From Macrostomum lignano (Eukaryota): a stretch of 64,000 nt of DNA. The notes beneath the pieces are model-generated. The model ran no database searches. It saw only the letters and a list, made by a program, of their open reading frames with translations, and was not told where the DNA came from. This document shows, piece by piece, positions 1-23,390 of the stretch; position 1 is the first letter of the stretch, and each line of letters begins with the position of its first letter. Position numbers and translations under genes: made by a program. Location of the stretch: assembly GCA_002269645.1 (NCBI GenBank), contig NIVC01003377.1, positions 36,999 through 100,998 on the forward strand, in the 5' to 3' direction.

Positions 1-1
1 C

Positions 2-3000
2 GACACGGCCATCGCCGACATCGTCTGGAGCCCCAGCGACGAGTCCAAGCTGGCCTGGGGCTCCACCAACAACAAGGTGTTCGTGCTGGACATCAACAAG
101 GAGAAGTACAGGATGTTCCAGTGCCACAGCCGCTCCGTCAACTGCGTGGTTTTTCACCCCAGCACGCCGCTGCTGCTCAGCAGCTCCAACGATGGCAGCG
201 TGTTCTGCTACGACCTGCGCAGCCCGGAGACCGAGGCCGTCGCCTGCGCCAACTTCAGCACAGGCGGCGACAATGCGGTTCGCTGCATCGACTTCTCCCG
301 CGTCAACGAGAACCTCTTCGCCACGGGGCAGGAGTCTGGCACCATTCAGGTTGGTTCAGGTCACCTGGCTTGCTTGTCTGTAGCTCTGTCTGTCATCTGG
401 CTGGGTTGTCTGTAGCTCTGTCTGTCACCTGGCTGGGTTCCGGGGTTGTCTGTAGCTCTATCTGTCATCTGGCTGGATTGTCTGTAGCTCTGTCTGTCAC
501 CTGGCTGGATTGTCTGTAGCTCTGTCTGTCACCTGGCTGGGTTGTCTGTAGCTCTATCTGTCATCTGGCTGGATTGTCTGTAGCTCTGTCTGTCATCTGG
601 CTGGATTGTCTGTAGCTCTGTCTGTCACCTGGCTGGGTTGTCTGTAGCTCTATCTGTCATCTGGCTGGATTGTCTGTAGCTCTGTCTGTCACCTGGCTGG
701 ATTGCCTGTAGCTCTGTCTGTCACCTGGCTGGGTTGTCTGTAGCTCTATCTGTCATCTGGCTGGATTGTCTGTAGCTCTGTCTGTCACCTGGCTGGATTG
801 CCTGTAGCTCTGTCTGTCACCTGGCTGGGTTGTCTGTAGCTCTATCTGTCATCTGGCTGGATTGTCTGTAGCTCTGTCTGTCATCTGGCTGGATTGTCTG
901 TAGCTCTGTCTGTCACCTGGCTGGGTTGTCTGTAGCTCTATCTGTCATCTGGCTGGATTGTCTGTAGCTCTATCTGTCATCTGGCTGGATTGTCTGTAGC
1001 TCTGTCTGTCATCTGGCTGGATTGTCTGTAGCTCTGTCTGTCACCTGGCTGGGTTGTCTGTAGCTCTATCTGTCATCTGGCTGGATTGTCTGTAGCTCTG
1101 TCTGTCACCTGGCTGGATTGCCTGTAGCTCTGTCTGTCACCTGGCTGGGTTGTCTGTAGCTCTATCTGTCATCTGGCTGGATTGTCTGTAGCTCGGTCTG
1201 TCACCTGGCTGGATTGTCTGTAGCTCGGTCTGTCACCTGGCTGGGTTGTCTGTAGCTCAGTCTGTCACCTGGCTGGATTGTCTGTAGCTCGGTCTGTCAT
1301 CTGGCTGGATTGTCTGTAGCTCGGTCTGTCACCTGGCTGGATTGTCTGTAGCTCGGTCTGTCACCTGGCTGGGTTGTCTGTAGCTCAGTCTGTCACCTGG
1401 CTGGATTGTCTGTAGCTCGGTCTGTCACCTGGCTGGATTGTCTGTAGCTCTGTCTGTCATCTGGCTGGATTGGCTCTCTTCTGGGCCTTCTCACTCCGCC
1501 TCCAAATAGCTCAGCCGACCCCCAACTGCAGGTGTGGGACATCCGCAACACGCAGAAGCCGGAGCGCAGCTTCCACGCTCAGCACAGCGTCATCACCTGC
1601 AGCTGGCACCCGAACAGCCAGTTCAACTGGCTGGCCACCGGCTGCCATCGGCAGAACACCATCGGCATCCTGGACTTCAGCAGCACCCACTTCACCGCCG
1701 TGCGGCACCTGGACACCATCCAGTGCATCTCGCCTGTGCTGAAGGTCCGCTGGCGTCCTGACTGCGACATGCACATCGCCTCCACAGCCAAGACCTGCGA
1801 CAAGAACATCTACGTGTGGGACCTCGCCAGCCACTACCTGCCCGACCGCATCTTCGAGGAGCACACGGGCGACATGGTCACCGGCTTCGACTGGGTCGGG
1901 CCCGACTGGCTTCTGTCCGTGGGCAAGGACGGTCGCATCATCCTGCACCACTACAGCGACGGCTACCGGCCCGCAGACTGGGTGAACCCCTGCTCCCTGG
2001 CCGTCAGCTGCCGCGGCTCCCTAGCAGCCTCGCAGAGCACCAAGAAGCTGCCAGCTGATCCCAATGTGCTGTCCGTGCAGCTGATGCAGCTGCAGACTCA
2101 GCCGCCGCCCCCGCAGCAGCAGCAGCCGGCGCTTGGCCGCAACTTCAGCCTGACCAACGCTGTCGGCGTCTCGGGTGCCGGTGCCAGGCACCGAGGCAGC
2201 GCCGCCAGCGCCTCTTCCGCCGTCACGGCCACCATTGTGCAGTGGAACCGGACCTCCACGCCTGGTGAGCTGGGAGATGAAGGCTGAAACGTCCCGGCTG
2301 AAACTTGCTGATTTGAAAACTAGGTTTTGTGAATCTAGGTCATTTATGAATAGTAGAATCGCCACTGACCAGTTCTCTAGAATCGCCTCTGACCAGTCAT
2401 CTAGAATCGCCCCTGACCAGTTCTCTAGAATCGCCTCTGACCAGTCATCTAGAATCGCCTCTGACCAGTTCTCTAGAATCGCCCCTGGCCAGTCCCCTAG
2501 AATCGCCCCTGACCAGTTCTCTAGAATCGCCCCTGATTAGTTCTCTAGAATCGCCCCTGACCAGTTCTCTAGAATCGCCCCTGACCAGTCCTAGAATCGT
2601 CCCTGGCCAGTCCCCTAGAATCGCCCCTGGCCAGTCCCCTAGAATCGTCCCTAGCCAGTCCCCTAGAATCGCCCCTGACCAGTTCTCTAAAATCGCCCCT
2701 GACCTGTTCTCTAGAATCGCCCCTGACCAGTTCTCTAGAATCGGCCCTGACCAGTCCTAGAATCGCCCCTGGCCAGTCCCCTAGAATCGCCCCTGGCCAG
2801 TCCCTAGAATCGCCCCTGACCGGCCATTACGAACCGCTAACTCGAATTCAATCCGAATCCCAGGCGAATACAACCTGGTCGAGTACAGGTGTCCGAGCCA
2901 GAAGCTGCCCCTCGGTACGGACAGTTTCGTCCACCTGGCCAAGCACTACCGGCTGTCCGGCGCCTCCCTCTCGGAAGTTTGCGCGCACAACTTTCAGCTG

Positions 3001-4287
3001 GCCGCCGGCCTCGGCCTGGACAGCGCCGCCTGTCTCTGGCAGCTGGTGCTCTGCGCGTTCGGCGTCGAAGAGGAGGCCTTGGCCGCCGCTTCCGCTGCCA
3101 ACGCGGCCTCAGCAGCCGAGGCGTCGGCCAGCCTCAACTTGCCGGAGCATCAGCTCGTAGCTGATGAGCTCGCTGGCGGTGGCGGCATCAACTCCGCCTC
3201 GATGTCCGTGACCTCGGCGTCGGCATCTGCGCCGGCCAACATGCCGAACTCCGAGTCGGTGTCCGCCCTCCTGTCGCTCGACGACGTCGATGCTGACCGT
3301 CGCCTTGGCCTTGGCGGCAGCGCTGGTGGCGGCGGCGGCAGCAGCAGCGGCGGCTTTGCCTTTATTGACGCCGGCCTGCAATCGGACAGCGCCACCCTCG
3401 ACGACGACTTCGACGGAGGCGGCGCCGGGGCCGGCGTTGGCGGCGACACGGACGTCGGCGAGTTGGACGCCGCTTCGGCTGGCGGCTTTGGCGACGCGAG
3501 CTCCAAGGAGCCGAACGACTACCTGTTCAGCGACGGCGAGCCCGCCACCGCGGACGAGGAGTTCTTCGCCGACGGGACCGGAACCGGCGCCGCGCCGCTG
3601 GAGCAGAGCCAGCTGCCGCTGCAGGGCCTGTGGCAGCAGAAGCCGCAGCAGGCTCAGCAGCATCGCAAGCGTCGGCAGCAGCGGTCGGGCAGCTGGCAGC
3701 TGCTGCAGCAACAGCAGCAGCAACAGCAGCAGCAGCCGCCGCAGCACCAGCAGGAGTTTTTGCCGTCGGATCTGCCGCCACTGACCGCCAAGCTGGAGGC
3801 CGACCTCAGCGGCATGGTGACGGACGCGATGTACGAGCTGGTGAACTGTGGCCACGTGCAAACTGTCGCCACGGCCTGCGTGCTGCTCGGGGACCGGCTG
3901 CGGGACAAGCTGGACGAGTCCGTGGCCGAGACCTGGATGCTGAGCTACATCGACCTGCTGCACTCGCACCAGCTGTTTGTGGAGAGCGCAGCTCTGATCG
4001 GCGCCTGCGGCTTCCTGCCCAACGTGGCCCTGCTGAACCAGCAGAGCACCTCCATCAGCCTGATCTGCGCCGCCTGCAACTATCCCAGCAAGCAGGGATT
4101 CACCTGCGCCAGGAGCCTCTGCAAGCAGCGCCCTCTGCTGTGCGTCATCTGTCATCGGACTGTGCGCGGTCTCTACCTGTGGTCCCGCGCCTGCCAGCAC
4201 GGCGGCCACTTTGACCACCTCATGGACTGGTACTCCAAGAATTCCGTGTGCCCAGAGTGCGGCGCCAGTGTGGATTTCGGCATCTGA
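2..4287 (+). CDS. WDR24: GATOR2 complex subunit WDR24 (Sea2), 5'-partial; exons <2-349, 1532-2264, 2864-4287
   Basis: WD40 repeats (HSRSVNCVVFHP...SSSNDG...YDLR; GTIQ|VWDIR; WHPNSQFNWLATG), the segment FVHLAKHYRLSGASLSEVCAHN, and a C-terminal ZnF/RING (CVICHRTVRGLYLWSRACQHGGHFDHLMDW...CPEC) match WDR24. Introns 350-1531 (phase 0) and 2265-2863 (phase 1, CTAAC branch motif) are GT-AG and keep the frame. Confidence 0.92.
361..1470. repeat. 32-bp minisatellite filling WDR24 intron (TCTGTAGCTCTGTCTGTCACCTGGCTGGATTG)
   Basis: About 35 direct tandem copies visible. Confidence 0.97.
2354..2821. repeat. ~24-bp minisatellite in WDR24 intron (CTAGAATCGCCCCTGACCAGTTCT)
   Basis: About 19 tandem copies with small variants. 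Confidence 0.95.
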
Positions 4288-4948
4288 GCATAGCGATAGG
4301 TGTTAGCATAGCAGCATAGCAACGGCTGTCTAACAGAATCTGAGCATACTGAGCATAGCAACGGGAATCTAACAGCATCTGAGCATACTCAGCATAGCAA
4401 CGGGAATCTAACAGCATCTGAGCATACTCAGCATAGCAACGGGAATCTAACAGCATCTGAGCATACTCAGCATAGCAACGGGAATCTAACAGCATCTGAG
4501 CATACTCAGCATAGCAACGGGAATCTAACAGCATCTGAGCATACTCAGCATAGCAACGGGAATCTAACAGCATCTGAGCATACTCAGCATAGCAACGGGA
4601 ATCTAACAGCATCTGAGCATACTCAGCATAGCAACGGGAATCTAACAGCATCTGAGCATACTCAGTATAGCAACGGGAATCTAACAGCATCTGAGCATAC
4701 TGAGCATAGCAACGGGAATCTAACCGCATCTGAGCATACTGAGCATAGCAACAGGAATCTAACAGCATCTGAGCATACTGAGCATAGCAACAAGAATCTA
4801 ACAGCATCTGAGCATACTGAGCATAGCAACAAGAATCTAACAGCATCTGAGCATAGCAACAAGAATCTAACAGCATCTGAGCATAGCAACAAGAATCTAA
4901 CAGCATCTGAGCATAGCAACAAGAATCTAACAGCATCTGAGCATAGCA
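4281..4948. repeat. 39-bp/30-bp minisatellite starting at the WDR24 stop codon (TCTGAGCATACTCAGCATAGCAACGGGAATCTAACAGCA)
   Basis: Tandem copies; unit overlaps the final ATC-TGA of the CDS. Confidence 0.95.
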
Positions 4949-6249
4949 CAGGTGTCTAAAAGCGTCTCTGAGTCTTGCAGGGGGGGGGGGGGTGCGGTGT
5001 CTGGATTAGCTGTATCGTTCCTTCATATTCCTTTCCTGGGCGGCAGCTCTTGACATTGTTCTGGCGTATAAGATTATTGGGTATGGATAAAGCTCAGGTG
5101 TGTCCGAAGTCTTTCTGCTTCTTTCTGTCTATGCTAAATACAAGAGCAATAGCGTAATCTGATGCGTCATGTATAGCATAATATGTTAGAGGTTATATTA
5201 GAAATCTGCTCAATATTAGTTGATTTTTCATAATTTAAATGCCATGCTCTCTATGCTACTCGAGTAGTGAATTGTGAGAACGAGAAGATTTTTCAGATTG
5301 TGCACCTTAATACATTATTAATCAGCTTGCAATCAAGAACGAATACATTTATGGCTTTCTTAATGCGCGCCACAGTAATTTCTTTAATTCCTTCATTCTG
5401 TAAATTATATAGAAATTCGCTCATTGTGGATAAATATACCAGCCTTGACTAAAACTTCACGGAGTTTTTTCTCGTCTTTCTTTTTTTGCTTTTTTGGATA
5501 TTTATTTTAATGTACATAGTTTTTATGTCACTTAGTCTTGAGGGGAGTAACTTGGGACCGGATCGTCTTGCCGATATGTAGAGTAATCATCTTTTTATTC
5601 ACGATTCGACCGTTAAAAGCATTAAACGTGTTTCGTGTTTTTTGGTTTTTTCCGCAGCTAGTTTTTCGTGTCTTTTGTAATAGTTGGACAGTCTTTGCAT
5701 ACATCAATTAAATGTTTATTAGCTCGTATGCTATGCTCACTCCAAATTAGTTGTCTCAAATTCTTTACCTGTAAAAAACGGGCCAAGAATTACATATCCG
5801 AACGACCTACAGTGCTGACAGACAGTGCAAGGGCAAAATGGCTCACTCAGTCCAGTGCGTGGCCCGTGGCCGTGGGCGACGCCAGTGGGCTCATTCCTTT
5901 AGACGGGGATAGATAGAAAACGTCGCCCCAACGTTCCCCAAGCCTGCCCAGTGTACATTGGAGGAAAATGTACGTCGAACCGCACGGCCGCACGCACTCT
6001 GGGCTAAAAATAGATGCGTGGACGAAATTGCGTGTGTTCTATTTTTAGAAACACCACTAGCTGCTATATTGGCAAAGCATTTTCATTTCTTTCCTGCCTG
6101 ACCCTCTCGTTTTGTTGCAGCTCAAGAAGAACCCGGCTAACTTGCACAAATTAACTGGATCTAACCGAAAAGCAAAAGGCAATACAAAAGCAAGCAGTTC
6201 CGTATATTTGATACATACAAGACAGTGAAAAATTGCTTTGAAACAAGAA

Positions 6250-9200
6250 ATGGAGGCCCAGCCAAAGCCGAAACAGCCGCCAGTAAGTGGCGAAGAAGAT
6301 ATTGAAAAGCTAAGCCTGGTCGATATTGAAGCCGCCATGAGCATGTCTGTCACTGACGCTGTGTTCACTTCTGTGCTGTCCAGCTACCCAGTGGGAGCGC
6401 ATATTCAGTGCCGCTGTCAGGTGAGCTGCGCAGCTTCTATCTAGTGTACACATTATTTTAAATCCTTGCTGTTGGTTGCTTTTGAAGTTGGGGCGGAGTC
6501 ATACAGTGACTGCCAAATAGATTTTGTCAGGGAGGGTCATAGTGGCTGCTAAATAGATTTAGTCAGGGAGGGTCATACTGACTGCCAAATAGATTTTGTC
6601 AGGGAGGGTCATAGTGGCTGCTAAATAGATTTAGTCAGGGAGGGTCATAGTGGCTGCCAAATAGATTTAGTCAGGGAGGGTCATAGTGGCTGCCAAATAG
6701 ATTTAGTCAGGGAGGGTCATAGTGGCTGCCAAATAGATTTAGTCAGGGAGGGTCATAGTGACTGCCAAATAGATTTAGTCAGGGAGGGTCATAGTGGCTG
6801 CCAAATAGATTTAGTCAGGGAGGGTCATAGTGACTGCCAAATAGATTTAGTCAGGGAGGGTCATAGTGACTGCCAAATAGATTTAGTCAGGGAGGGTCAT
6901 AGTGGCTGCCAAATAGATTTAGTCAGGGAGGGTCATAGTGACTGCCAAATAGATTTAGTCAGGGAGGGTCATAGTGACTGCCAAATAGATTTAGTCAGGG
7001 AGGGTCATAGTGGCAAGCTCATAAAAACTTCATTGTGGTGCTGGCTGTCAGGCGTTGGTCATGCTCCAGATTTCCAATGGTCTCCTGTTCGAATCCCGCA
7101 GGTGAGCGACCCGGCCGACCTGTCCGAGGGCTGCTGGGTCGGCCTCTTCAAAGTCGGGTGGGCCAGCGCCGAGGCCGACTGTGTCTGCCGGGCCGAGTGC
7201 CGGCGCGAGTCCGAGCGGGTGCTGGCGGCCGTCTTCAGCCCCGGCCAGCTGCCCCGCGACACCCGCGAGTTCTACCAATTCTGCTTCGCCGCTCCCGGCG
7301 GCCTCGTCAAGGGCGCCAGCCCGCCATTCCTGTTCCGTGCCGCCCCCGCCGACGATTTTGTGTCCGTTGTGGATGAGGAGCTGCAGGGCGTGGTTGTGTC
7401 TGCCAGGTGCGACTCGTAAGGCCATGGCAACCCGTCCCTAACTCAGTATTGAAACCTCCCTACCTTTAACTCCGCTCTGCAACCCGCCCCCAACCCAGCT
7501 CTGCAACCCGCTCCCAACCCAGCTCTGCAACCCGCCCCCAACCCAGCTCTGCAACCCGCCCCCAACCCAGCTCTGCAACCCGCCCCCAACCCAGCTCTGC
7601 AACCCGCCCCCAACCCAGCTCTGCAACCCGCCCCCAACCCAGCTCTGCAACCCGCCCCCAACCCAGCTCTGCAACCCGCTCCCAACCCAGCTCTGCAACC
7701 CGCTCCCAACCCAGCTCTGCAACCCGCTCCCAACCCAGCTCTGCAACCCGCTCCCAACCCAGCTCTGCAACCCGCTCCCAACCCAGCTCTGCAACCCGCT
7801 CCCAACCCAGCTCTGCAACCCGCTCCCAACCCAGCTCTGCAACCCGCCCCCAACCCAGCTCTGCAACCCGCCCCCAACCCAGCTCTGCAACCCGCCCCCA
7901 ACACAGCTCTGCAACCCGCCCCCAACCCAGCTCTGCAACCCGCCCCAACCCAGCTCTGCAATCCGCCCCAACCCAGCTCTGCAATCCGCCCCAACCCAGC
8001 TCTGCAACCCGCTCCCAACCCAGCTCTGCAATCCGCCCCAACCCAGCTCTGCAACCCGCCCCAACCCAGCTCTGCAATCCGCCCCAACCCAGCTCTGCAA
8101 TCCGCCCCAACCCAGCTCTGCAACCCGCTCCCAACCCAGCTCTGCAATCCGCCCCAACCCAGCTCTGCAATCCGCCCCCACCCAGCTCTGCAACCCGCCC
8201 CAACCCAGCTCTGCAATCCGCCCCCAACCCAGCTCTGCAACCCGCCCCAACCCAGCTCTGCAATCCGCCCCAACCCAGCTCTGCAACCCGCCCCCAACCC
8301 AGCTCTGCAACTCAGCATTGCCGCTCCCATTCACCCCCCCCCCAGGACGGCCCAGCTGGAGGGCCAGCTGGCTTCGATGCGGCTGGAGCAGGAAGCGCAG
8401 CGCTCGGCAGCCGAGGACGCCGCCGAACGACTACGGGCCGAGCTGTCCGAACTGTCCGAGCGACTGTCCGCCGCGGAGTCTCGCGCCGCCAACTCCAAGT
8501 CCGAGTCGTGCCGACTGCGCGCCGAACTTGGGCGCCAGGATGAGTGGCGCCAGGTGCAGGCGGCGCGCCTAATCGAGGCGGAGGACGAGAAGCAGCGCCT
8601 ACTGCGCCGGCTGGAGGAGGTGGCGCGGGACGCCGAGACGGCCGGAGATCAGGCTGACGCGGCCCGCCAGTCGCTGGAGCTGCACGCGGCGGAGCGGCAG
8701 CGGTTGGCCGAGGAGCTGCAGGCCGCGCGGCTGGAGTCGGAGCGGCTGTCCGGCCAGCTGCAGGCGGTCAGCGGCCAGCTGGAGGCCGCCCAGCAGCGCG
8801 AGCGGCGGGTGGCCGACCAGCTGACTGAGGTGAGCGGGCGGGCTGGATATCCCAGTGTCCGAGATTAACATCTCACTTTCCGACTCTGAAATCTCACGGT
8901 CTGATTCTGACATCGCAATGTCCCCTGTTCCCGCAGACTCAGGCAGCTGCGGAGACGGCACAGTCGACTGCAGCCGCGCAGCTGGAAGCTCAGCGGGCCC
9001 AGCAGCAGCAGGAGCTCCAGCTGATGCAGGCCGAGCTGCAGCAGCGCCATGCGGCTGAGCAGCAGAAGCTGCAGCAGCAGCTGCAAGTGGCCGAGGCCCA
9101 GTCCGCTCAGCTGCTCGCCGAGCTGCAGCAGCTGCGCCAGCAGCGCCAGGCCTCTCCGGAGGAGCTGCAGGCCCAGCAGGCCCGCTACTGCAGCCTGCTG

Positions 9201-9948
9201 ACCGCCTACGAGGGCGTGAAGAAGCAGTTCCACTCCGCCGAGGACCGGGAGCGAATCGTGAAGCTCAAGTACGACGAGGTGATCGAGTGCAACAGACAGA
9301 TGCTGGCCCGAGAAGACCGCCTGCATCAGACCACTCAGGAGTTCAAGGACAGACTGCAGGAGGTAAGTCTGTGGACGCCGTCCTCCCAGATCCTCAGTCG
9401 CTGGGCCACCACCCTCCCAGATCCTCAGTGGCTGGGCCAGCCTTCCAGATCTTCAGTCGCTGGGCCATCGCCCTCCCAGATCCTCAGTGGCTGGACCAGC
9501 CTCCCAGATTCTCAGTTGCTGGGCCAGCCAGCCTCCCAGATCCTCAGTTGCTGGGCCACCACCCTCCCAGATCCCCAGTTGCTAAGCCACCACCCCAGAT
9601 CCCCAGATTAAAGCACAGCCGCCCCGCGCACCGCAGGGCTGCAAGGAGTACAAGCGGCTGATGAAGAAGTACAAGGAGGCTCAGCACCAGCTGCAGCGGC
9701 AGCAGCAGGCCGAGCCAGCCGAGGAGTTCCACGACGCGATCGGTGGCGACGACGAGACCGAGGAGGACGGCACCGGGACGGTCATCCACCGGCCGCCGCC
9801 AGTGGAGGTGCCGCTGACTGCCCTGACCGCCGCTGCCCCGGTTGCCGAGCTTGCCAGAGTGTGTCCGGTCTGCGATGTGACCGACTTCGCTAGCCAGACC
9901 GACTACGAGGAGCACGTGCACAGCCACTTTGGCGAGGCGGACGACTGA
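6250..9948 (+). CDS. TAX1BP1: TAX1BP1/CALCOCO2(NDP52)-like autophagy receptor (SKICH + coiled coil + UBZ), 568 aa; exons 6250-6420, 7102-7415, 8346-8829, 8937-9362, 9637-9948
   Basis: SKICH motifs VFTSVLSSYPVGAHIQC, WVGLFKVGW, EFYQFCFAAPGGLVKGASPPFLFR; long coiled coil; C-terminal UBZ CPVC...YEEHVHSHF. All four introns GT-AG with consistent phases (0,2,0,0); spliced length 1707 nt. Exact paralog within the CALCOCO family is uncertain. Confidence 0.85.
6495..7013. repeat. 36-bp minisatellite in TAX1BP1-like intron 1 (AGTGGCTGCCAAATAGATTTAGTCAGGGAGGGTCAT)
   Basis: About 14 tandem copies. Confidence 0.97.
7475..8316. repeat. 23-24-bp minisatellite in TAX1BP1-like intron 2 (AACCCAGCTCTGCAACCCGCCCCC)
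   Basis: About 35 tandem copies. Confidence 0.97.
9380..9608. repeat. Degenerate ~30-bp tandem repeat in TAX1BP1-like intron 4
   Basis: Recurring CCTCCCAGATCCTCAGT(C/T/G)GCTGGGCCA units. Confidence 0.85.
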
Positions 9949-11944
9949 CTATTTGTTGGGGACGGCTGACTGGTGATTTCATGTAAATACGCGCGTCCCA
10001 AATCCCTGAATTGAAAAAATAAGACAAAAGATTTTGCAGAGCGCAGATCGGCACATCTTTTTCCATCGTCACTTCTTTCGGTTTTTAAGCAATTTTTTGG
10101 TAAAATTCGCATACTAACTACTATTCAGTTTTATTTCAGTAGCTAATCGTGAGTATTTAACCCGTGATAAATATAATTTTATTTGTTTACTTAACTGTTT
10201 TATCATAGCAGCATGTTGACAAGATTACTGATTCAATCGGAAAACCTGCTTTAGTTTTTATGCACCAGCGGGGGTTTTCTTTTCGACCTCTGTCTTTTGT
10301 GTCACTGATTTGAATGTTGTAAAAATTGCCGATATGTATAGAAAGTAATATTTGTGATGGTAAGAATAACGAGTAAAAGTGTGTCCCTTTGGTTTATTTT
10401 TTTCGAGCTCTCCTTTCTGTTGTACAAATGCGTCATTATCCAGCTAACACACAGTTCCTGTGTATTTACGTAATAATTTTATTTCGTTTCGTTGATTTTT
10501 TGTATATTTGCAATTGCAACGCCTCTGTCGTCATTTCAATTTTCATTATAATTTTTTGATTGCTGCAACAAAAAAATATAAAATTTCAAACAAAAATTAT
10601 CGCATTTCCTCATTCTTAATCAAGACAAACAAGAGAATCGATTTCCCAGTTAAATATTACCAACCTACTAAACAGTCGCCCACATACAATTCCTGCCTAA
10701 ACACAATATTCTACTTTATTAATTTTCACCTCACTATTCTACTAACAGTAAAATTTATTACTGAAAAAGCTTGCGGCTAATTTGAGTATAACTCAAATAT
10801 TTCTGCAGATACTGTTTTATTTTTATAGTAATTAATAAAGAATAAAAACGAGTTCAGAATAATTCTGCTAAATAATGAAATATTTTCCTAGATTTCTTGT
10901 CGCCATGGCATAAGGAAAAACTTCGGATTTGATCCACTCGCCTCGCCTTTGTCATGTCATGTCATTTCTCGTGTGCTGGGAGTTTACTCCATAGGGTTTA
11001 TTTTACAGTTTTAGTATTAACGCATATAATAGATAGTACAGTATATTAAACTCTTGCTTCTTATGGATAATTTAAGGATAAATTTTAATCAGGTTTTAGA
11101 AGCTTTCACTTTAAAGTTAATAAAGAAAGTAGAAAAGTCTTTAAAAAGAACTTGAAAAAAAATTAAAAACCACTGTTGACAGGGCATTGTCATGTTTGAT
11201 TACCCTAAAAAGGGCCGTTTTTTACACTTACAGTTAATAAATCAGATTAAAAGCTTGCAATAAACTATTAATACAATTTTGCAACTGTAAAGCAACTGTG
11301 ATTAAAGAAAATCCACTATACTAAAATGTTCTACTACTGTTAACAAGGTAATCATGTTTGGTTGCCCCTGAAAGGGCCGTTTTACAATGTGGCTTTCCTT
11401 CAGTAAAGGCCTGGCCCTAGTGGTTATAAACATTTAGAAAAATTACACGTTTCTCCTTAAAAGGATAATACTTTCAGTGGCCTAATATGTGCAATTTCAA
11501 TTTTATTGAAGTGCCAGTAAGTAATTAACTTATTAGTTATTATAGCCATTAGTCATTTATGCACTTATGGTATGGTATGTTGAATCACAAATTATATCAG
11601 GTAAAGTACTCACATACAGTATTCAATTTTCACAAGTGAGAACACTTATAATTGGTCTAAACTTTATAAGAACTATACCGAGAACTGCTCAGTGCTCACC
11701 ATGATCGATGTGAGAAAGTCTAAATAAAATTGGGGCCCGAAAAGGGCCGTTTTACTCAAACTACATGTAGGCTTCCAAACAACTGTCGGTATGGAACTGC
11801 GAATTTTAATTTACGTTACTACGGTAGATATCGATTATTTGAATTAATTTAAGTTGAATTAAGTTGTCTGTCTTAATTATTTTTTAAGACGATTTTTTAA
11901 TCATAATTTTTTTTAAATTGCTAAGTGCTAATACTACGGCAAAT

Positions 11945-12145
11945 GTTATCAAGAGGAAATGGAAGGCGAAAGAAGGAAGAAGAATTAGACCGAAAGGGGA
12001 GGGAGGATGACCTAAAACTGAAAGAATACACCGGATGGACAATGGAGAGGCAAAGAAGAGCAGCGAAGGACAGATAGCGGTGGCGGAAGCTGGTGCATGA
12101 ATGCGTGCGCCCATGGGCACGGTTATGACGGCCAAGGTAAATAGA
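11945..12145 (+). mobile_element. 5'-truncated, degenerate RTE-clade LINE 3' fragment
   Basis: Translates with frameshift/stop to EMEGERR...EDDLK..EYTGWTMERQRRAAKDR*RWRKLV, matching the typical RTE ORF C-terminus (GRPRRRW.DD.K.W.G.T......A.DR..WR.LV). Confidence 0.6.
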
Positions 12146-12499
12146 ATGCTACGAGTAACGCACAACGAAGAAACATTAAAAACAAGGTGTCTGTAATACT
12201 GTAATTAAAACTGTCTAAGTCCAATTTTAGTTGACTCTTAAGATTTAGTATATACAAGCTGTTGAAACCCGCGGATTTTGAACCCGGGGAATTCCAATCC
12301 CCGGAACTATTTTTGCATGTATTCTGAAATCTAAGGCCATACACAAACAAAAACTTGTTAATAGTTAGTAGGATAGAGGTAGACATAAAATGGAGCACAT
12401 TCGTGTAAAATTAGGGTTTGAGACATTGTTGGCTGGGGTACTGCGCAGAATGTCAGGCAATGTCTGTCTGACTCTAAAACATATATTGCTAAACTCTGG

Positions 12500-13018
12500 T
12501 CTCTCCCTGACTCTCCCTACGTCCCTTGGATCCTTTAAAATTTCTATCGTCTCTTTGTTTCCTCTCATCTCTCTCGTCCCTCGTCTCTCCTCTCTCCTTT
12601 CTCCCCTCTTCTCTCGTATCTTCCCTCATCTCTCTTCTCTTTCATCTCTCTTATCTCATCTCTTGTCTCTTCTTTTCTCTCTCCTCTCCTCTCTCCTCTC
12701 TACTTTTTCGTTTTCTCTCTCCTCTCTCCTCTCTCCCCTCTCCTCTCTCCTCTCACCCCCTCTTCTCTCTGATCTTCCTTCTCCTTTCTATTCTTTTCTC
12801 TCTTCTCTTAACTCTCTCCTCTAATCTCTCATCTCTCCCCTCTTCTCTCGTCTCTTCCCTCACCTCTTTTCTCTCTCTCGTCTTTGCTCTCTCATCTTTC
12901 CTTTCTCTTCTTTGATCTTTTCTCTCTTATCTCTTCTCATTTCTCTCTGCTCCCCCTTCTCTCTCTCTCTATCTCTCTCTCTCTCTCTCTCTCTTCTCTG
13001 TCTCTCTCTCTTATCTCT

Positions 13019-13087
<69 letters not shown>

Positions 13088-13110
13088 GTTTTTCTCTCTT
13101 ATCTCTCCTC
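12500..13110. repeat. CT-rich low-complexity tract (left flank of palindrome)
   Basis: Polypyrimidine with (CT)n runs. Confidence 0.9.
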
Positions 13111-16100
13111 ACTACTAAGGGATTCCGTAAGGCTTGATTTTGGAGGTGGGGTGGGTGTCAACCCTCCTCGCCTCTCATTGGCTGGCGCCCCGATCACTAG
13201 GTGATCGATACCCGTATCGATATCGGCGACTCGAACCCGCGACCCTCCCCAGCCGCAGGCGCACCTACCGATATTAGATCCCAATAAATCAATCAGATCC
13301 CAAATCAATCAGATCCCAAGCGCACCCTCCCGAGCCGCAGGCGCCCATGCAGCAGGCGCCCATGCCGCAGGCACCCCGAGTGTACACTCTCCCGATATGT
13401 GTGTACACCGATATGTAGTCATCGATACGGGCCTCTTCCCCTCTCTCACCTACATCTCAACTAGCGAAATCGAACCCAGGTCGCGCCCATACTAGGACAC
13501 TACACGGTTGTGGGGTATAGGGAGCGAGAAGTTTCAACCCTAACGCTGACGCAGCCCTGTACAGTGAGAGTGTACGGGCAGAGAGGGGTGGGGCGGACAG
13601 AGAACCAGCCACTAGGTTGTTATACTGTTGAAGCATAGGGAGCGAGAAGTTTTAACCCCGATGCTGACGCAGCCCTGTACACTGAGCGTGTACGGGCAGA
13701 GGGTGGGTGGAAAGAGATGTGAATAACACAGCCTGCTGCAGGAGCCGGATAGAGAGGCGCATGCTAGGACAGAGAGGTAGTGTGAGTCACACACACCCCA
13801 CAGAGAAAGCCATACAGAGGATAGAGAGCTCCCTCCCCAGTTGCAGGGGACAGAGAGGCAGGCAGGGTATGCAGGGGCATGCGAACCGTCAAGGGGCCAC
13901 GCGAGGATAGAGTGGAGGAGCAGAGATGTGTTTGGACAGAGAGCCAGCCACGTGTGCGTAGTGTGAGGGAACAGAAACATATGGAGCAGGAGGGAGATAG
14001 GAAGCAAACGCGCAGGGTAAGGGAGCCATGCAGCAGGGAGCAGTGTACAGTGAGACACGGGCAGGGGTGGAGCCGTGCGTGGACAGAGCTGAACGGCACG
14101 GTCAGCTGCAGGAATAGGATGATAGAGAGGCGCGGAGGGGGACAGAGAGCAGTGTGCAGGGTAGGCAGCCACGCAGGCTGGGGAACAGAGAGGCGCGTGT
14201 CAGCCAGTTACAGCCCGGGACAGAGAAGTATGAAGGGGGGCCTGGGACAGAGAAGTATGAAGGGGGGCCTGGGACAGAGTTGCGAGCAAGGCACAGAGAG
14301 AGGTAGGGTCCGGTAGCTATGTATAGGCAGGGACCCACGCGAGGGCAGGACAGGGCATGCAAGGCATGCAAATTACATGCAAGGGCAGTGAGGTGTGCGC
14401 GGAGGGAGACAGAGAGCAGTGTGTAGGGGTAGGTAACAGCAAACTTTAGTAGCGGCGCGTGCGGGGACGGAGAAACCAGTCAGAGCATACAGAGACGTTA
14501 CAGAGAGGTACACAAGCAGAGACCAAAGCGAGCAGAGCACATGTGTAGGGACAGAGACGTGAGGGAGAATCGACCAAAACACGCTATGTATTTTCAAAAG
14601 TTGGTTTTAGTGCAACATGTTTAATAGTGGGTAGTATAATAGTATGTACATAGTAGGTATAATAGTAGTAATAATAGTAAGCATATTAGCCCAAAAGGTA
14701 GACTAAAACAGGCTAAACTGTGTGTACGCATCCTCATCACCCCACAAGCCCCCTCTCCCGCCAGACTCACTCTACCAAACCCTCCTGTATTGCTGCATGA
14801 AGGAAAATATAGTGTAAAAATACAGATCTTAACCGTCAGACCGCTGAAATCAGGGCACACTAGAGGGGTTTCGGGGTCTGCATGCTCTATGTAAGCTGCT
14901 TGAGGAGGTTCCAAGGGCGTTGTGAGGGTTTCCATTATGTTTTGAAAAAAACTAGAGGCTTAAATACAACGTTTTATTCAAAAGTAGGTTATTTTAATGA
15001 AATAGCTGACACAATCATTGTCGAGAGTAGAAATTTTTATAAGAAACCAGGCATTTTAGCAAAAATAAACCTTCAAACCACATAAAATTGAATAAAAAGC
15101 AGACATTTTCAATTATAAACCGCAAGTATTTTAATAGAAAAGTAAGCAAACAAGGCACAAAACCAGCAAATTTTACCTTTTTATTTTAATGTTACTGATA
15201 AGGTAGAGAGTAGAAACTTGTGAGCTGTACGGAGTTAGAAAGTATTAACCATTATGTATCGTATGAATTATTAGTTCAGTACCAGCCATTGGTCAAGCGA
15301 GCATTTATGAAGTTATTACGAGTGATGAAGGGATAGAGAGCTATATACAGGAAGACAGTATCCTTCTAAACCACCACGAACAGATTGCTAATAGAGATAA
15401 GCTTTGTCTGTGTGCAGTATGAGTAAGCGAAGGCGGGGCAAATACTTTTCCACATGCCGGACAGAACAGTATTGTGCTAGGATTTCTCTCGAAATCGCGG
15501 TACGTTACTAGTTTTTATCACACCATCCAGATGCGTCAACTAGTCAGCAGTAGTCATTTATATGTTATTAGAACTTACAAACCCAGGTCAAGTAAATATT
15601 ACAAAGAGTATATTACGTACACACGCCAACTCCGAATACCAAGCCATACTAGTCTACTTGCAGTGCTCCTGGAGGGAAGGGACGGCGGGGTGTACATCCG
15701 GCAGGGTGGGCGTCCAGCGAGTGTACATCTGACAGGATGGGTGTTCAGCAAGTGTACATCTGACAGGGTGGGCGTTCAGCAAGTGTACCTTCAGCGTCGA
15801 GTAGGTGTACACCCGTCAGTGGGAACTCAGCCCCTCCCACCAATGTCGTGTGCACGCGGTTAGTCAGTATAGTGGTGGGGTAGACGGTGCAGGAAGGAAA
15901 CCCAGATGCTGACGCTGCCCTGTACAGCGAGCAACCAGCCCTCCTGTAGCAGGAGGGGGACAGAGAGTGCGTGGAGGCAGTAGGAGATAGAGGACGCTAC
16001 CCGGCATGTCGCAGCACGCGGCGCGGGACAGAGAGGCAGTGTGTAAGTCACCCCCACAGGGAGAGCTGCCCTGGCAGGAGGCGCGGGACAGAGAGGCGGT

Positions 16101-19100
16101 GAATCACACCCCACGGAGAGAGCCGTACAGCGAGCTTCCCCACCCGAGTCCGGTAAATATTACAGAGTATTACGTGCACACGCCAGCCCTGAATACCAAG
16201 CCATACTAGTCTACCTGCAGTGCTCCCAGAGGGAAGGGATGGTCAGGAGTTACACACCAAGAATGCATTCATACAAAGAGTACACAACTCGAGCCCAGAC
16301 ACCAAGTCACAGTCTACTTACAGTAGAGATGGTAGATTAATAGCAAGATTATATTACAATTAGACCTCCCTAGCACATGAGGAGTGAAATTCAATAATAA
16401 TTGAATTCAATAATAATACAACATTTAGACGTAGTAATTTAATTACAAAATACCACTAACACTGAGCCAACGAATTGTAGGTTACAAAGGAGTTGCACTC
16501 ATATGGAAAGCCAGTATAATGCAGGTGTATATTATTAAAACATAGACAAAAACGATGCAGACGTATATACACACTATTGATTTTGTACATGTACATTTCG
16601 GCATATTACCACACATCGCAGGCACATATTATATATCGGGGGATAGGTTAAAATACACACATCGTAGATGTAGAAGCAGACACAATGCAGGAAAATTATG
16701 ATACGAGTGTACATATTAGTGCGTAAAAGTATCATATTATGACACCCTGTAGCACATATTGACATAATGCAGGGGAAAATATTGACAGAAATAGTACACA
16801 ATTGTAGAGGTAACAACCCGCCAACTAGTAAGGACATCCAGCACTTGTTCAGGTTTTTATTATTTCGAGACGAGTGTCATGCCCCCGCAAGAGATCTTAT
16901 CAGAAATTTGTTGAACTCCACTGCAACTCTCCCAGAGCCTCCAAATGTGAGTTTTTAACCCAGGGTCGAGTACAAAGGACCCGCCCACTCTTAACCCCAA
17001 GGGGTGATCGTAGCGGAGACCAAGTACAGTGCGGACGGAGAGGGGTAACAGAAAGCGCTGCATCAGACCGCAGGGCTGCATTCCTCCCCGAGGTAGGCGC
17101 GTCAGCTCCCACTCCTCATTTAACCATCAAGTAAACTAAAGAAGTCAAGCAGAAAGCCTTACAATCACCCGCAACCAGCACAAGTAAGAGTACTTTCCAC
17201 TAGAGAGCCATAGTGCAAGATTCGCGAGCCAAGTTGAAGAAGCACACCAAATTACACTAAAGACATATGTATTAAAAAGCATACCGGCACCTCTACAAAA
17301 ACACAGTATGTACCGATTAAAGTTGCTTTTGGTGCAGTGTATTTAATAAAAGCAGGTACCTAACACAAAAGTAGGCATCAATGCAGTGCACGGGCTAAAC
17401 TGTATTTACAAACGCAGGGCAACGAACTACACACAATGTAGCGCATAGACATAATTGTACGCATAAATGTACGCAATTTCCGGTATATAGGACCAAATGT
17501 ACACAATGTACACAAACACACACACACACACACACACTCAGGCGTATTCACAGCAAGAGCTTCCTGCCGATGGCGCCATCGCCTGCGGCGATCGGTGCTG
17601 CAGGATGCGCTGCAGGATGCGCCTGAGTGTGTGTGTGTGTGTGTGTGTTTGTGTACATTGTGTACATTTGGTCCTATATACCGGAAATTGCGTACATTTA
17701 TGCGTACAATTATGTCTATGCGCTACATTGTGTGTAGTTCGTTGCCCTGCGTTTGTAAATACAGTTTAGCCCGTGCACTGCATTGATGCCTACTTTTGTG
17801 TTAGGTACCTGCTTTTATTAAATACACTGCACCAAAAGCAACTTTAATCGGTACATACTGTGTTTTTGTAGAGGTGCCGGTATGCTTTTTAATACATATG
17901 TCTTTAGTGTAATTTGGTGTGCTTCTTCAACTTGGCTCGCGAATCTTGCACTATGGCTCTCTAGTGGAAAGTACTCTTACTTGTGCTGGTTGCGGGTGAT
18001 TGTAAGGCTTTCTGCTTGACTTCTTTAGTTTACTTGATGGTTAAATGAGGAGTGGGAGCTGACGCGCCTACCTCGGGGAGGAATGCAGCCCTGCGGTCTG
18101 ATGCAGCGCTTTCTGTTACCCCTCTCCGTCCGCACTGTACTTGGTCTCCGCTACGATCACCCCTTGGGGTTAAGAGTGGGCGGGTCCTTTGTACTCGACC
18201 CTGGGTTAAAAACTCACATTTGGAGGCTCTGGGAGAGTTGCAGTGGAGTTCAACAAATTTCTGATAAGATCTCTTGCGGGGCATGACACTCGTCTCGAAA
18301 TAATAAAAACCTGAACAAGTGCTGGATGTCCTTACTAGTTGGCGGGTTGTTACCTCTACAATTGTGTACTATTTCTGTCAATATTTTCCCCTGCATTATG
18401 TCAATATGTGCTACAGGGTGTCATAATATGATACTTTTACGCACTAATATGTACACTCGTATCATAATTTTCCTGCATTGTGTCTGCTTCTACATCTACG
18501 ATGTGTGTATTTTAACCTATCCCCGATATATAATATGTGCCTGCGATGTGTGGTAATATGCCGAAATGTACATGTACAAAATCAATAGTGTGTATATACG
18601 TCTGCATCGTTTTTGTCTATGTTTTAATAATATACACCTGCATTATACTGGCTTTCCATATGAGTGGCAACTCCTTTGTAACCTACAATTCGTTGGCTCA
18701 GTGTTAGTGGTATTTTGTAATTAAATTACTACGTCTAAATGTTGTATTATTATTGAATTCAATTATTATTGAATTTCACTCCTCATGTGCTAGGGAGGTC
18801 TAATTGTAATATAATCTTGCTATTAATCTACCATCTCTACTGTAAGTAGACTGTGACTTGGTGTCTGGGCTCGAGTTGTGTACTCTTTGTATGAATGCAT
18901 TCTTGGTGTGTAACTCCTGACCATCCCTTCCCTCTGGGAGCACTGCAGGTAGACTAGTATGGCTTGGTATTCAGGGCTGGCGTGTGCACGTAATACTCTG
19001 TAATATTTACCGGACTCGGGTGGGGAAGCTCGCTGTACGGCTCTCTCCGTGGGGTGTGATTCACCGCCTCTCTGTCCCGCGCCTCCTGCCAGGGCAGCTC

Positions 19101-22052
19101 TCCCTGTGGGGGTGACTTACACACTGCCTCTCTGTCCCGCGCCGCGTGCTGCGACATGCCGGGTAGCGTCCTCTATCTCCTACTGCCTCCACGCACTCTC
19201 TGTCCCCCTCCTGCTACAGGAGGGCTGGTTGCTCGCTGTACAGGGCAGCGTCAGCATCTGGGTTTCCTTCCTGCACCGTCTACCCCACCACTATACTGAC
19301 TAACCGCATGCACACGACATTGGTGGGAGGGGCTGAGTTCCCACTGACGGGTGTACACCTACTCGACGCTGAAGGTACACTTGCTGAACGCCCACCCTGT
19401 CAGATGTACACTTGCTGAACACCCATCCTGTCAGATGTACACTCGCTGGACGCCCACCCTGCCGGATGTACACCCCGCCGTCCCTTCCCTCCAGGAGCAC
19501 TGCAAGTAGACTAGTATGGCTTGGTATTCGGAGTTGGCGTGTGTACGTAATATACTCTTTGTAATATTTACTTGACCTGGGTTTGTAAGTTCTAATAACA
19601 TATAAATGACTACTGCTGACTAGTTGACGCATCTGGATGGTGTGATAAAAACTAGTAACGTACCGCGATTTCGAGAGAAATCCTAGCACAATACTGTTCT
19701 GTCCGGCATGTGGAAAAGTATTTGCCCCGCCTTCGCTTACTCATACTGCACACAGACAAAGCTTATCTCTATTAGCAATCTGTTCGTGGTGGTTTAGAAG
19801 GATACTGTCTTCCTGTATATAGCTCTCTATCCCTTCATCACTCGTAATAACTTCATAAATGCTCGCTTGACCAATGGCTGGTACTGAACTAATAATTCAT
19901 ACGATACATAATGGTTAATACTTTCTAACTCCGTACAGCTCACAAGTTTCTACTCTCTACCTTATCAGTAACATTAAAATAAAAAGGTAAAATTTGCTGG
20001 TTTTGTGCCTTGTTTGCTTACTTTTCTATTAAAATACTTGCGGTTTATAATTGAAAATGTCTGCTTTTTATTCAATTTTATGTGGTTTGAAGGTTTATTT
20101 TTGCTAAAATGCCTGGTTTCTTATAAAAATTTCTACTCTCGACAATGATTGTGTCAGCTATTTCATTAAAATAACCTACTTTTGAATAAAACGTTGTATT
20201 TAAGCCTCTAGTTTTTTTCAAAACATAATGGAAACCCTCACAACGCCCTTGGAACCTCCTCAAGCAGCTTACATAGAGCATGCAGACCCCGAAACCCCTC
20301 TAGTGTGCCCTGATTTCAGCGGTCTGACGGTTAAGATCTGTATTTTTACACTATATTTTCCTTCATGCAGCAATACAGGAGGGTTTGGTAGAGTGAGTCT
20401 GGCGGGAGAGGGGGCTTGTGGGGTGATGAGGATGCGTACACACAGTTTAGCCTGTTTTAGTCTACCTTTTGGGCTAATATGCTTACTATTATTACTACTA
20501 TTATACCTACTATGTACATACTATTATACTACCCACTATTAAACATGTTGCACTAAAACCAACTTTTGAAAATACATAGCGTGTTTTGGTCGATTCTCCC
20601 TCACGTCTCTGTCCCTACACATGTGCTCTGCTCGCTTTGGTCTCTGCTTGTGTACCTCTCTGTAACGTCTCTGTATGCTCTGACTGGTTTCTCCGTCCCC
20701 GCACGCGCCGCTACTAAAGTTTGCTGTTACCTACCCCTACACACTGCTCTCTGTCTCCCTCCGCGCACACCTCACTGCCCTTGCATGTAATTTGCATGCC
20801 TTGCATGCCCTGTCCTGCCCTCGCGTGGGTCCCTGCCTATACATAGCTACCGGACCCTACCTCTCTCTGTGCCTTGCTCGCAACTCTGTCCCAGGCCCCC
20901 CTTCATACTTCTCTGTCCCAGGCCCCCCTTCATACTTCTCTGTCCCGGGCTGTAACTGGCTGACACGCGCCTCTCTGTTCCCCAGCCTGCGTGGCTGCCT
21001 ACCCTGCACACTGCTCTCTGTCCCCCTCCGCGCCTCTCTATCATCCTATTCCTGCAGCTGACCGTGCCGTTCAGCTCTGTCCACGCACGGCTCCACCCCT
21101 GCCCGTGTCTCACTGTACACTGCTCCCTGCTGCATGGCTCCCTTACCCTGCGCGTTTGCTTCCTATCTCCCTCCTGCTCCATATGTTTCTGTTCCCTCAC
21201 ACTACGCACACGTGGCTGGCTCTCTGTCCAAACACATCTCTGCTCCTCCACTCTATCCTCGCGTGGCCCCTTGACGGTTCGCATGCCCCTGCATACCCTG
21301 CCTGCCTCTCTGTCCCCTGCAACTGGGGAGGGAGCTCTCTATCCTCTGTATGGCTTTCTCTGTGGGGTGTGTGTGACTCACACTACCTCTCTGTCCTAGC
21401 ATGCGCCTCTCTATCCGGCTCCTGCAGCAGGCTGTGTTATTCACATCTCTTTCCACCCACCCTCTGCCCGTACACGCTCAGTGTACAGGGCTGCGTCAGC
21501 ATCGGGGTTAAAACTTCTCGCTCCCTATGCTTCAACAGTATAACAACCTAGTGGCTGGTTCTCTGTCCGCCCCACCCCTCTCTGCCCGTACACTCTCACT
21601 GTACAGGGCTGCGTCAGCGTTAGGGTTGAAACTTCTCGCTCCCTATACCCCACAACCGTGTAGTGTCCTAGTATGGGCGCGACCTGGGTTCGATTTCGCT
21701 AGTTGAGATGTAGGTGAGAGAGGGGAAGAGGCCCGTATCGATGACTACATATCGGTGTACACACATATCGGGAGAGTGTACACTCGGGGTGCCTGCGGCA
21801 TGGGCGCCTGCTGCATGGGCGCCTGCGGCTCGGGAGGGTGCGCTTGGGATCTGATTGATTTGGGATCTGATTGATTTATTGGGATCTAATATCGGTAGGT
21901 GCGCCTGCGGCTGGGGAGGGTCGCGGGTTCGAGTCGCCGATATCGATACGGGTATCGATCACCTAGTGATCGGGGCGCCAGCCAATGAGAGGCGAGGAGG
22001 GTTGACACCCACCCCACCTCCAAAATCAAGCCTTACGGAATCCCTTAGTAGT
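13111..22052. mobile_element. 8.94-kb foldback (palindromic) element: arms 13111-17544 and 17620-22052, 75-bp spacer, putative 6-bp TSD CTCCTC
   Basis: Right arm is the reverse complement of the left arm (mirror ORF pairs in the track, e.g. 13612-14172(-)/20991-21551(+)). Ends ACTACTAAGGG...CCCTTAGTAGT; CTCCTC at 13105-13110 and 22053-22058. The inverted repeat is certain; mobile-element status is inferred. Confidence 0.8.

Positions 22053-23390
<1,338 letters not shown>

Follow-up and report, generated by a model that had tools for sequence, protein, structure and literature searches.

The window, that is, the whole stretch of 64,000 nucleotides of Macrostomum lignano DNA analysed here, contains a gene-less palindrome whose arms meet at a short spacer, the loop. 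Its features are as follows.

13105..13110, plus strand: left target-site duplication CTCCTC (sequence)
13111..22052, no strand: whole element, a non-coding palindrome of 8,942 bp (arm comparison, target duplication, profile searches)
13111..17544, plus strand: left arm (arm self-comparison)
13111..13117, plus strand: terminal ACTACTA, a 3-base repeat (family end comparison)
13111..13427, plus strand: homology to the terminal repeat of a polymerase-bearing element, with GCCGCAGGC repeats (sequence comparison)
13118..13137, plus strand: hypervariable 20-base tip, a mosaic common to helper elements (end comparison)
13138..13182, plus strand: conserved block behind the tip, 1.7% between copies (copy comparison)
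13190..13226, plus strand: subterminal CCGAT..ATCGG module, the "terminal hairpins" of the first-pass annotation; absent from some subfamilies
15686..16142, plus strand: block 71–78% like the terminal repeat of an integrase-bearing element (sequence comparison); mirror at ~19021–19477
17516..17537, plus strand: (AC)n tract closing the central stem (sequence); (GT)n mirror at 17627–17648
17545..17619, no strand: central spacer (loop), conserved by descent (copy comparison)
17567..17595, plus strand: CCGAT-x-ATCG-y-CGAT-CGG core (pattern search)
17620..22052, minus strand: right arm (arm self-comparison), with mirror features at 21937–21973 (module), 22026–22045 (tip) and 22046–22052 (terminal motif)
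22053..22058, plus strand: right target-site duplication CTCCTC (sequence)

The element is self-complementary over nearly its full length, with arms copied from each other; spacer excluded, they differ at 4 positions in 4.43 kb. Its termini read ACTACT..AGTAGT within a 6-bp target duplication, and by analogy with the Polinton ends treated in passages of PMC8097293 the terminal ACTACTA is likely to act as a protein-primed origin. A coding role for the palindrome was rejected, since neither Pfam (13 long frames) nor PHROGs (11 frames) gave a match. Also rejected was the sole RNA-family match, mir-3149, which lies on the (AC)n/(GT)n stem under its gathering score.

The CT-rich flanks (12575–13108 and 22128–22633) are 82% alike in direct orientation, indicating that the element landed in an older tandem duplication of ~600 bp. 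An empty-site search by way of the flank matched an interspersed repeat of ~290 bp at ~12250–12540 (97–100% identical among 41 matches listed, from 2,327 candidates) and yielded no empty allele. Dense minisatellite arrays (periods 14–40) and GC-rich low-complexity stretches occupy window positions 1–12000 and 30000–64000.

A mobile family with an inherited centre

The loop sequence has at least 42 matches in the genome, some pairs of which are one insertion assembled twice; 24 of the 42 show no difference across 86 bases (scores cover 40 of 58 candidates). Reduced to one per flank, the copies comprise 39 non-coding insertions with both ends, and the window's loop is present in 31 of them. The loop table holds these 31 insertions, C181 being left out as an anchor variant; the end table excludes C2128, one end of which was not located, and C251 and C1242 were classed from the insertion and target-duplication survey. 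Perfect 6-bp target duplications flank 36 of the 39 insertions as called, or 37 with one end corrected, and complete palindromes measure 8.5–9.4 kb (n=21). Judged by these 39 insertions, the mobile unit is the 9-kb dimer rather than the 4.5-kb unit proposed in the first-pass annotation, and none of them is a 4.5-kb monomer ending at the loop with a target duplication of its own.

The arms of each copy have evolved together. Across 21 copies, substitutions relative to the window number 721 where both arms carry them and 89 where only one arm does, a single recombinant accounting for 38 of the 89. Hence, one arm has been regularly re-made from the other during spread of the family, a predominance of both-arm differences being what fold-back copying is expected to produce. 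Such homogenisation within copies, together with the loops identical over 86 bases, fits a physical turn at the loop. The centre is therefore an inherited turn-around and not a random break. To this extent the earlier view of the centre as a turn-around point rather than a random break holds, and an assembly slip is discounted as well; its further suggestion of a dedicated structured site is unsupported.

Comparison of centres among palindromes gives a similarly divided answer: one loop recurs in 31 of 39 insertions, whereas palindromes of related elements turn elsewhere. C1090, a palindrome made from a polymerase element, has 4.69-kb arms, a 1.9-kb spacer and an unrelated turn point. An unrelated AGTAGT-ended Maverick palindrome (C2301/C3189; L215/L216 and L217/L218) has arms of ~6.3 kb, a 2.15-kb spacer and another turn point. 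This Maverick palindrome carries two integrase genes and no polymerase.

Spacer motifs and their counterparts near the ends

The motifs previously reported in the spacer are all present. The core CCGAT-GGCGCC-ATCG-CCTGCGG-CGAT-CGG occupies 17567–17595 and a perfect 14-mer palindrome starts at 17568. GCCGCAGGC lies on the minus strand at 17581–17589, and its plus-strand occurrences are at 13252, 13334 and 13364 (earlier given as ~13253, 13335 and 13366). TGCAGGATGCGC is duplicated, one copy starting at 17599 and the other, which extends into the arm, at 17611. Within the 64-kb window, CCGAT-N4-12-ATCG-N4-12-CGAT-N0-2-CGG is matched at three places only, 13190, 17567 and 21973 (minus strand). 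None of 20,000 dinucleotide-shuffled loops and none of 300 shuffled arms contains it, counts that overstate its significance because the pattern was picked after viewing the data. The layout said to be common to spacer and terminal hairpins is thus repeated as a pattern, but the hairpins are not terminal, starting 80 bases inside the end, and their fold is not that of the spacer.

The minus strand of the loop also resembles a subterminal repeat, GCCGCAGGCG..TGGCGCCA. Against the subterminal region of one end type, the score of the loop was reached by 1 of 500 shuffles; its likeness to the window's own end and to one polymerase-element end is weak, with 47 and 43 of 500 shuffles, respectively, reaching the score. 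Common ancestry accounts for this resemblance as well as common function does. The loop probably descends from subterminal repeat sequence that was trapped when the palindrome arose by template switch.

Two putative helper elements form a split Polinton

The family shares its ends with two virus-like elements that together form a split Polinton. Those of the first kind (8.5–9.8 kb, n=12) bear a protein-primed polymerase (PF03175), which is matched in 12 of 12 first-kind and 0 of 8 second-kind elements. Those of the second kind (10.1–10.6 kb, n=8) bear an rve integrase (E 1.9e-9), and their first 31 bases match those of the palindrome; integrase and virion-type matches are confined to them. Among the latter are frames that resemble those assigned to capsid, ATPase and protease in other Mavericks, putative labels obtained by tblastn to frames named by motif and position; the capsid candidate matched neither Pfam nor PHROGs. 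The palindrome itself carries neither PolB nor integrase, as judged from the absence of family matches in 13 frames and of tblastn matches. Perfect 6-bp target duplications flank all 14 polymerase-bearing or derived elements and 7 of the 8 integrase-bearing elements. Palindromes and both helpers begin with 5′ ACTACT, not the canonical (AGT)2 or (AG)3, and ten Mavericks found via another integrase have no end sequence in common with the palindrome.

Pieces of both helpers are built into the arm. Arm positions 1–317 correspond to the terminal repeat of the polymerase element, and positions 2576–3032 are 71–78% like that of the integrase element; in other subfamilies a block like the polymerase element's repeat takes the place of the latter. 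Together some 0.9 kb of the 4.5-kb arm matches helper terminal repeats, leaving ~80% without a match to either helper. Moreover, in the chimeras C4851 and C428, 4.27 kb of arm is joined to a polymerase half.

In C4072 (L094/L095) and C2932, another Maverick has its capsid-type gene interrupted by a polymerase element flanked by a 6-bp duplication; the interrupted family gave no polymerase match in the stretches examined. The polymerase gene (L094:1877-5298, minus strand) and four other copies are split into several frames, with breaks at matching places that may be introns or frameshifts, and a PC4-like frame (E 0.03) lies opposite this gene on the other strand.

Hypervariable tips are probably exchanged between elements

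Ends of palindromes and helpers have a common layout: ACTACTA, 20 variable bases and TTTTG. Bases 8–27 differ by a mean of 47% among 26 copies, versus 1.9% for the arms and 1.7% for the next 45 bases. Between C436 and C977, 3,999 arm bases show no substitution, yet 9 of the 20 tip bases differ; C530 and C1575, with arms 0.08% apart, differ at 17 of 20. Left and right tips are identical in 36 of 39 copies, and an additional ACT is present at one end in 2 of 39.

The genome contains ~260 ends of this kind. There are 56 tip variants among 131 ends of standard length (15 ends of other length are omitted), and 8 of the 18 variants on polymerase elements occur on palindromes too. The variants are mosaics, the four-gamete test failing in 137 of 190 site pairs. 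Five integrase-element tips lie within 0–4 changes of this pool though the sequence past base 31 is unrelated, one integrase element keeps polymerase-type sequence to about base 45, and in a second integrase-element subfamily the tips of three copies are 9–11 changes from the pool. Two clearly different tips per element are seen in four helper-type elements (C3516, C1024, C428 and C3150). In AGTAGT-type Mavericks, taken as a control, tips are alike, but with only 3 ends in each of two families the sample is too small to carry weight. Exchange across so short a homology suggests template switching right after priming.

A probable snap-back mode of replication

The palindrome family is mobile, makes 6-bp duplications, has ends and tip variants in common with the helpers, homogenises its arms and contains pieces of helper repeats. 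We conclude that the loop belongs to a gene-less 9-kb palindrome that is probably a snap-back defective genome of the split Polinton, copied by the helper polymerase and inserted by the helper integrase. The protein-primed polymerase of the helper would start at an element end, and the single strand so displaced would fold back on itself as a 4.4-kb hairpin duplex, restoring the origin at its open end. The polymerase would copy one arm as far as the loop, go round it and return along the other arm, and the helper integrase would insert the resulting 9-kb duplex. Synthesis round the loop would make nicking and flip/flop unneeded, the loop having only to be passable; a snap-back mechanism would thus provide a turn-around without a special site. 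Tips would be swapped among co-replicating molecules if the primed polymerase switches template within the first 10–45 bases. In adenovirus panhandles, one terminal repeat is repaired from the other. Packaging in the putative capsid of the helper is possible, since element sizes match.

To our knowledge, models of Polinton replication exist (single strand, panhandle, protein priming), but the process has hardly been observed. In a young family of 9-kb palindromes that are almost perfect, whose arms are homogenised and whose tips are swapped, free co-replicating molecules have left a genetic record. The evidence here is drawn from a genome assembly, in which free linear or hairpin molecules are not seen; the model predicts an easily detected intermediate in the living animal, a 4.4-kb duplex that is snapped back on itself and capped by protein at its end.

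A more elaborate scheme, which we put forward tentatively, is a germ-line Polinton system of three components. One segment would carry the polymerase and another the integrase and capsid, and the third component would be a gene-less snap-back satellite of capsid size, replicating as a 4.4-kb hairpin. All three would draw a 20-base tip of fixed length from one pool, rapidly reshuffled by template switching just after protein priming, possibly in an arms race over origin recognition between helper and parasite. The loop would be a second copy of a binding site from the subterminal region, required for the element to be copied or packaged.

Relation to known systems

Snap-back defective genomes, foldback elements and non-autonomous Polintons are already known kinds; the founding Polinton paper reportedly describes the last of these. 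Passages of PMC8097293 list a 6-bp target duplication and short terminal repeats for jumping-back initiation as Polinton hallmarks and give end motifs besides (AGT)2 and (AG)3, and a passage of PMC4046053 restates the panhandle replication model. As in the Polintons, Mavericks and adintoviruses of the relevant passages of PMC8097293, PMC8502044 and 10.1101/2023.08.22.554363, the palindrome family has a 6-bp duplication, a 3-base terminal repeat, terminal inverted repeats and a narrow size range, and helper ends and chimeras suggest that it likewise depends on a protein-primed PolB and an rve integrase. Unlike the Polintons of those passages, the palindrome is gene-less, its inverted repeat makes up 99% of the element as against 100–1500 bp in print, and its helper functions are split over two separate elements. 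Its ACTACT..AGTAGT ends are the reverse of the common (AGT)2//(ACT)2 in the pertinent section of PMC8097293.

Two segments with matching termini and a protein-primed PolB also characterize the bidnaviruses in passages of PMC8502044, which, unlike the present system, do not combine an integrase-bearing, double-stranded Polinton gene set with a gene-less third component. The palindrome resembles snap-back and copy-back defective genomes, known from RNA viruses and, in passages of PMC10924063, from AAV, in being self-complementary and gene-less, in having its parent's ends and, probably, in depending on a helper; it differs from them in being integrated and inherited, with a fixed centre in dozens of germ-line copies, and in belonging to a protein-primed DNA system. 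Among the passages and titles searched, none describes a Polinton satellite that is palindromic, a Polinton split over two elements, a variable tip at the origin or a hypervariable, exchangeable segment within a protein-primed origin; repeat libraries or supplements may list the family.

Alternative explanations

Parvoviruses such as AAV have T-shaped hairpin ends, a Rep-type nickase and flip/flop. The palindrome resembles them as a palindromic dimer with a structured turn, and the loop could be a site specialised for a role in cis, be it a hairpin telomere or a site for resolution, protein binding or packaging. It would repeat the subterminal module, and the true replicon would be a 4.5-kb hairpin-ended monomer. 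We consider this unlikely, despite a layout common to loop and ends that exceeds shuffles. Of 16 copies whose centre has been deleted in part or rearranged, 10 retain the loop, and the 29-base loop core has only single-copy changes, none common to several copies, which together leave room for a function. The loop is also the rearrangement point in C530, C1197, C1368 and C1607. Whole-spacer folding is better than that of most shuffles on the plus strand (z −2.0; 6/200), and less so on the minus strand (z −0.8).

Conservation and predicted structure argue against such a site. The loop has 24 substitutions in 2,100 bases (1.1%, 28 copies) versus 1.4% in the arms, a count that omits two rearranged loops and carries no formal test since the copies are related. 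Compensatory changes were absent among the copies compared, whose divergence of ≤5% gives tests of loop conservation and structure little power. With DNA parameters the loop plus strand is predicted to fold as an unbranched rod rather than in a T or Y shape, unlike the subterminal module, for which a three-way junction is predicted; the outer CCGAT:ATCGG stem has a predicted probability of 0.007 (plus strand) and 0.08 (minus strand), and the 14-mer hairpin one of 0.001 and 0.01. Inversion of the loop core relative to the asymmetric rest of the spacer is seen in 0 of 29 intact loops from assembled copies, a count that concerns the inner core only, inversion of the whole spacer between identical arms being undetectable.

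Neither loop nor end module is present throughout the family. Of 88 family ends, 14 are without the end module, some of them on copies that have the same loop, as are 16 of 41 polymerase-element ends. Three copies without the loop, each a single insertion, keep arms of 2.8–3.7 kb and perfect target duplications, and a single copy, C38, is without the loop core. A profile search of its frames reveals no Rep/NS1-type nickase in the element, whose outer ends, unlike those of parvoviruses, are open Polinton ends. Hence, a dedicated hairpin telomere at the centre, structured like a parvovirus end, is not supported.

Foldback transposons (FB, Galileo) are non-coding, with very long inverted arms and a short loop, and those of MULE or P type have a 7–10-bp target duplication and a DDE transposase partner. 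The palindrome could be a non-autonomous transposon of this kind, moved by the integrase alone with no replication of its own, its arms equalised by chromosomal gene conversion. Long inverted arms, a short loop, internal repeats, target duplications and lack of coding content all agree with this, yet we regard it as quite unlikely. It leaves unexplained how C436 and C977 can differ at 9 of 20 tip bases at 0.00% arm difference when the ends of each copy agree, why tip variants are common to two other elements, and how chimeras with the polymerase element arose. Unlike FB and Galileo, the palindrome has ends and tip variants in common with a Polinton system, and its arms are near-identical within copies and regenerated between them; unlike MULE or P foldbacks, it makes a 6-bp duplication and the partners found are Polinton-type. 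With the snap-back reading preferred, elements classed as foldback transposons can be Polinton parasites.

Long palindromes are a familiar sequencing and assembly artefact, and no public contig spanned the arm–loop junctions by 31 bases on both sides, in a comparison that skipped 17504–17660 as repeat, but an origin in turn-back long reads is very improbable and largely refuted by the same centre in 31 insertions with differing flanks and target duplications on both sides, and by the loop in contigs of two other studies (X2 and X9; 2 of 4 public runs). Among the datasets listed for the element none is RNA.

The survey also brought up several unusual insertions. C261 (L023/L024) is a tandem pair of palindromes with a single target duplication. 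In C2693 (100884–108515; L021/L022), a 7.6-kb insertion lies in the (AC)n tract beside the loop; its inverted ends are short and imperfect, and none of its frames reaches 250 codons. An insertion in C1330 starts alike. A short ACTACT-ended element in C558 (43471–53355; L175) carries two tandem copies of a retrotransposon protease-RT-integrase. Finally, C493 (L249:164-308) is a 145-bp mini-element with two ACTACT-type ends that contains the loop 12-mer CTGCGGCGATCG.
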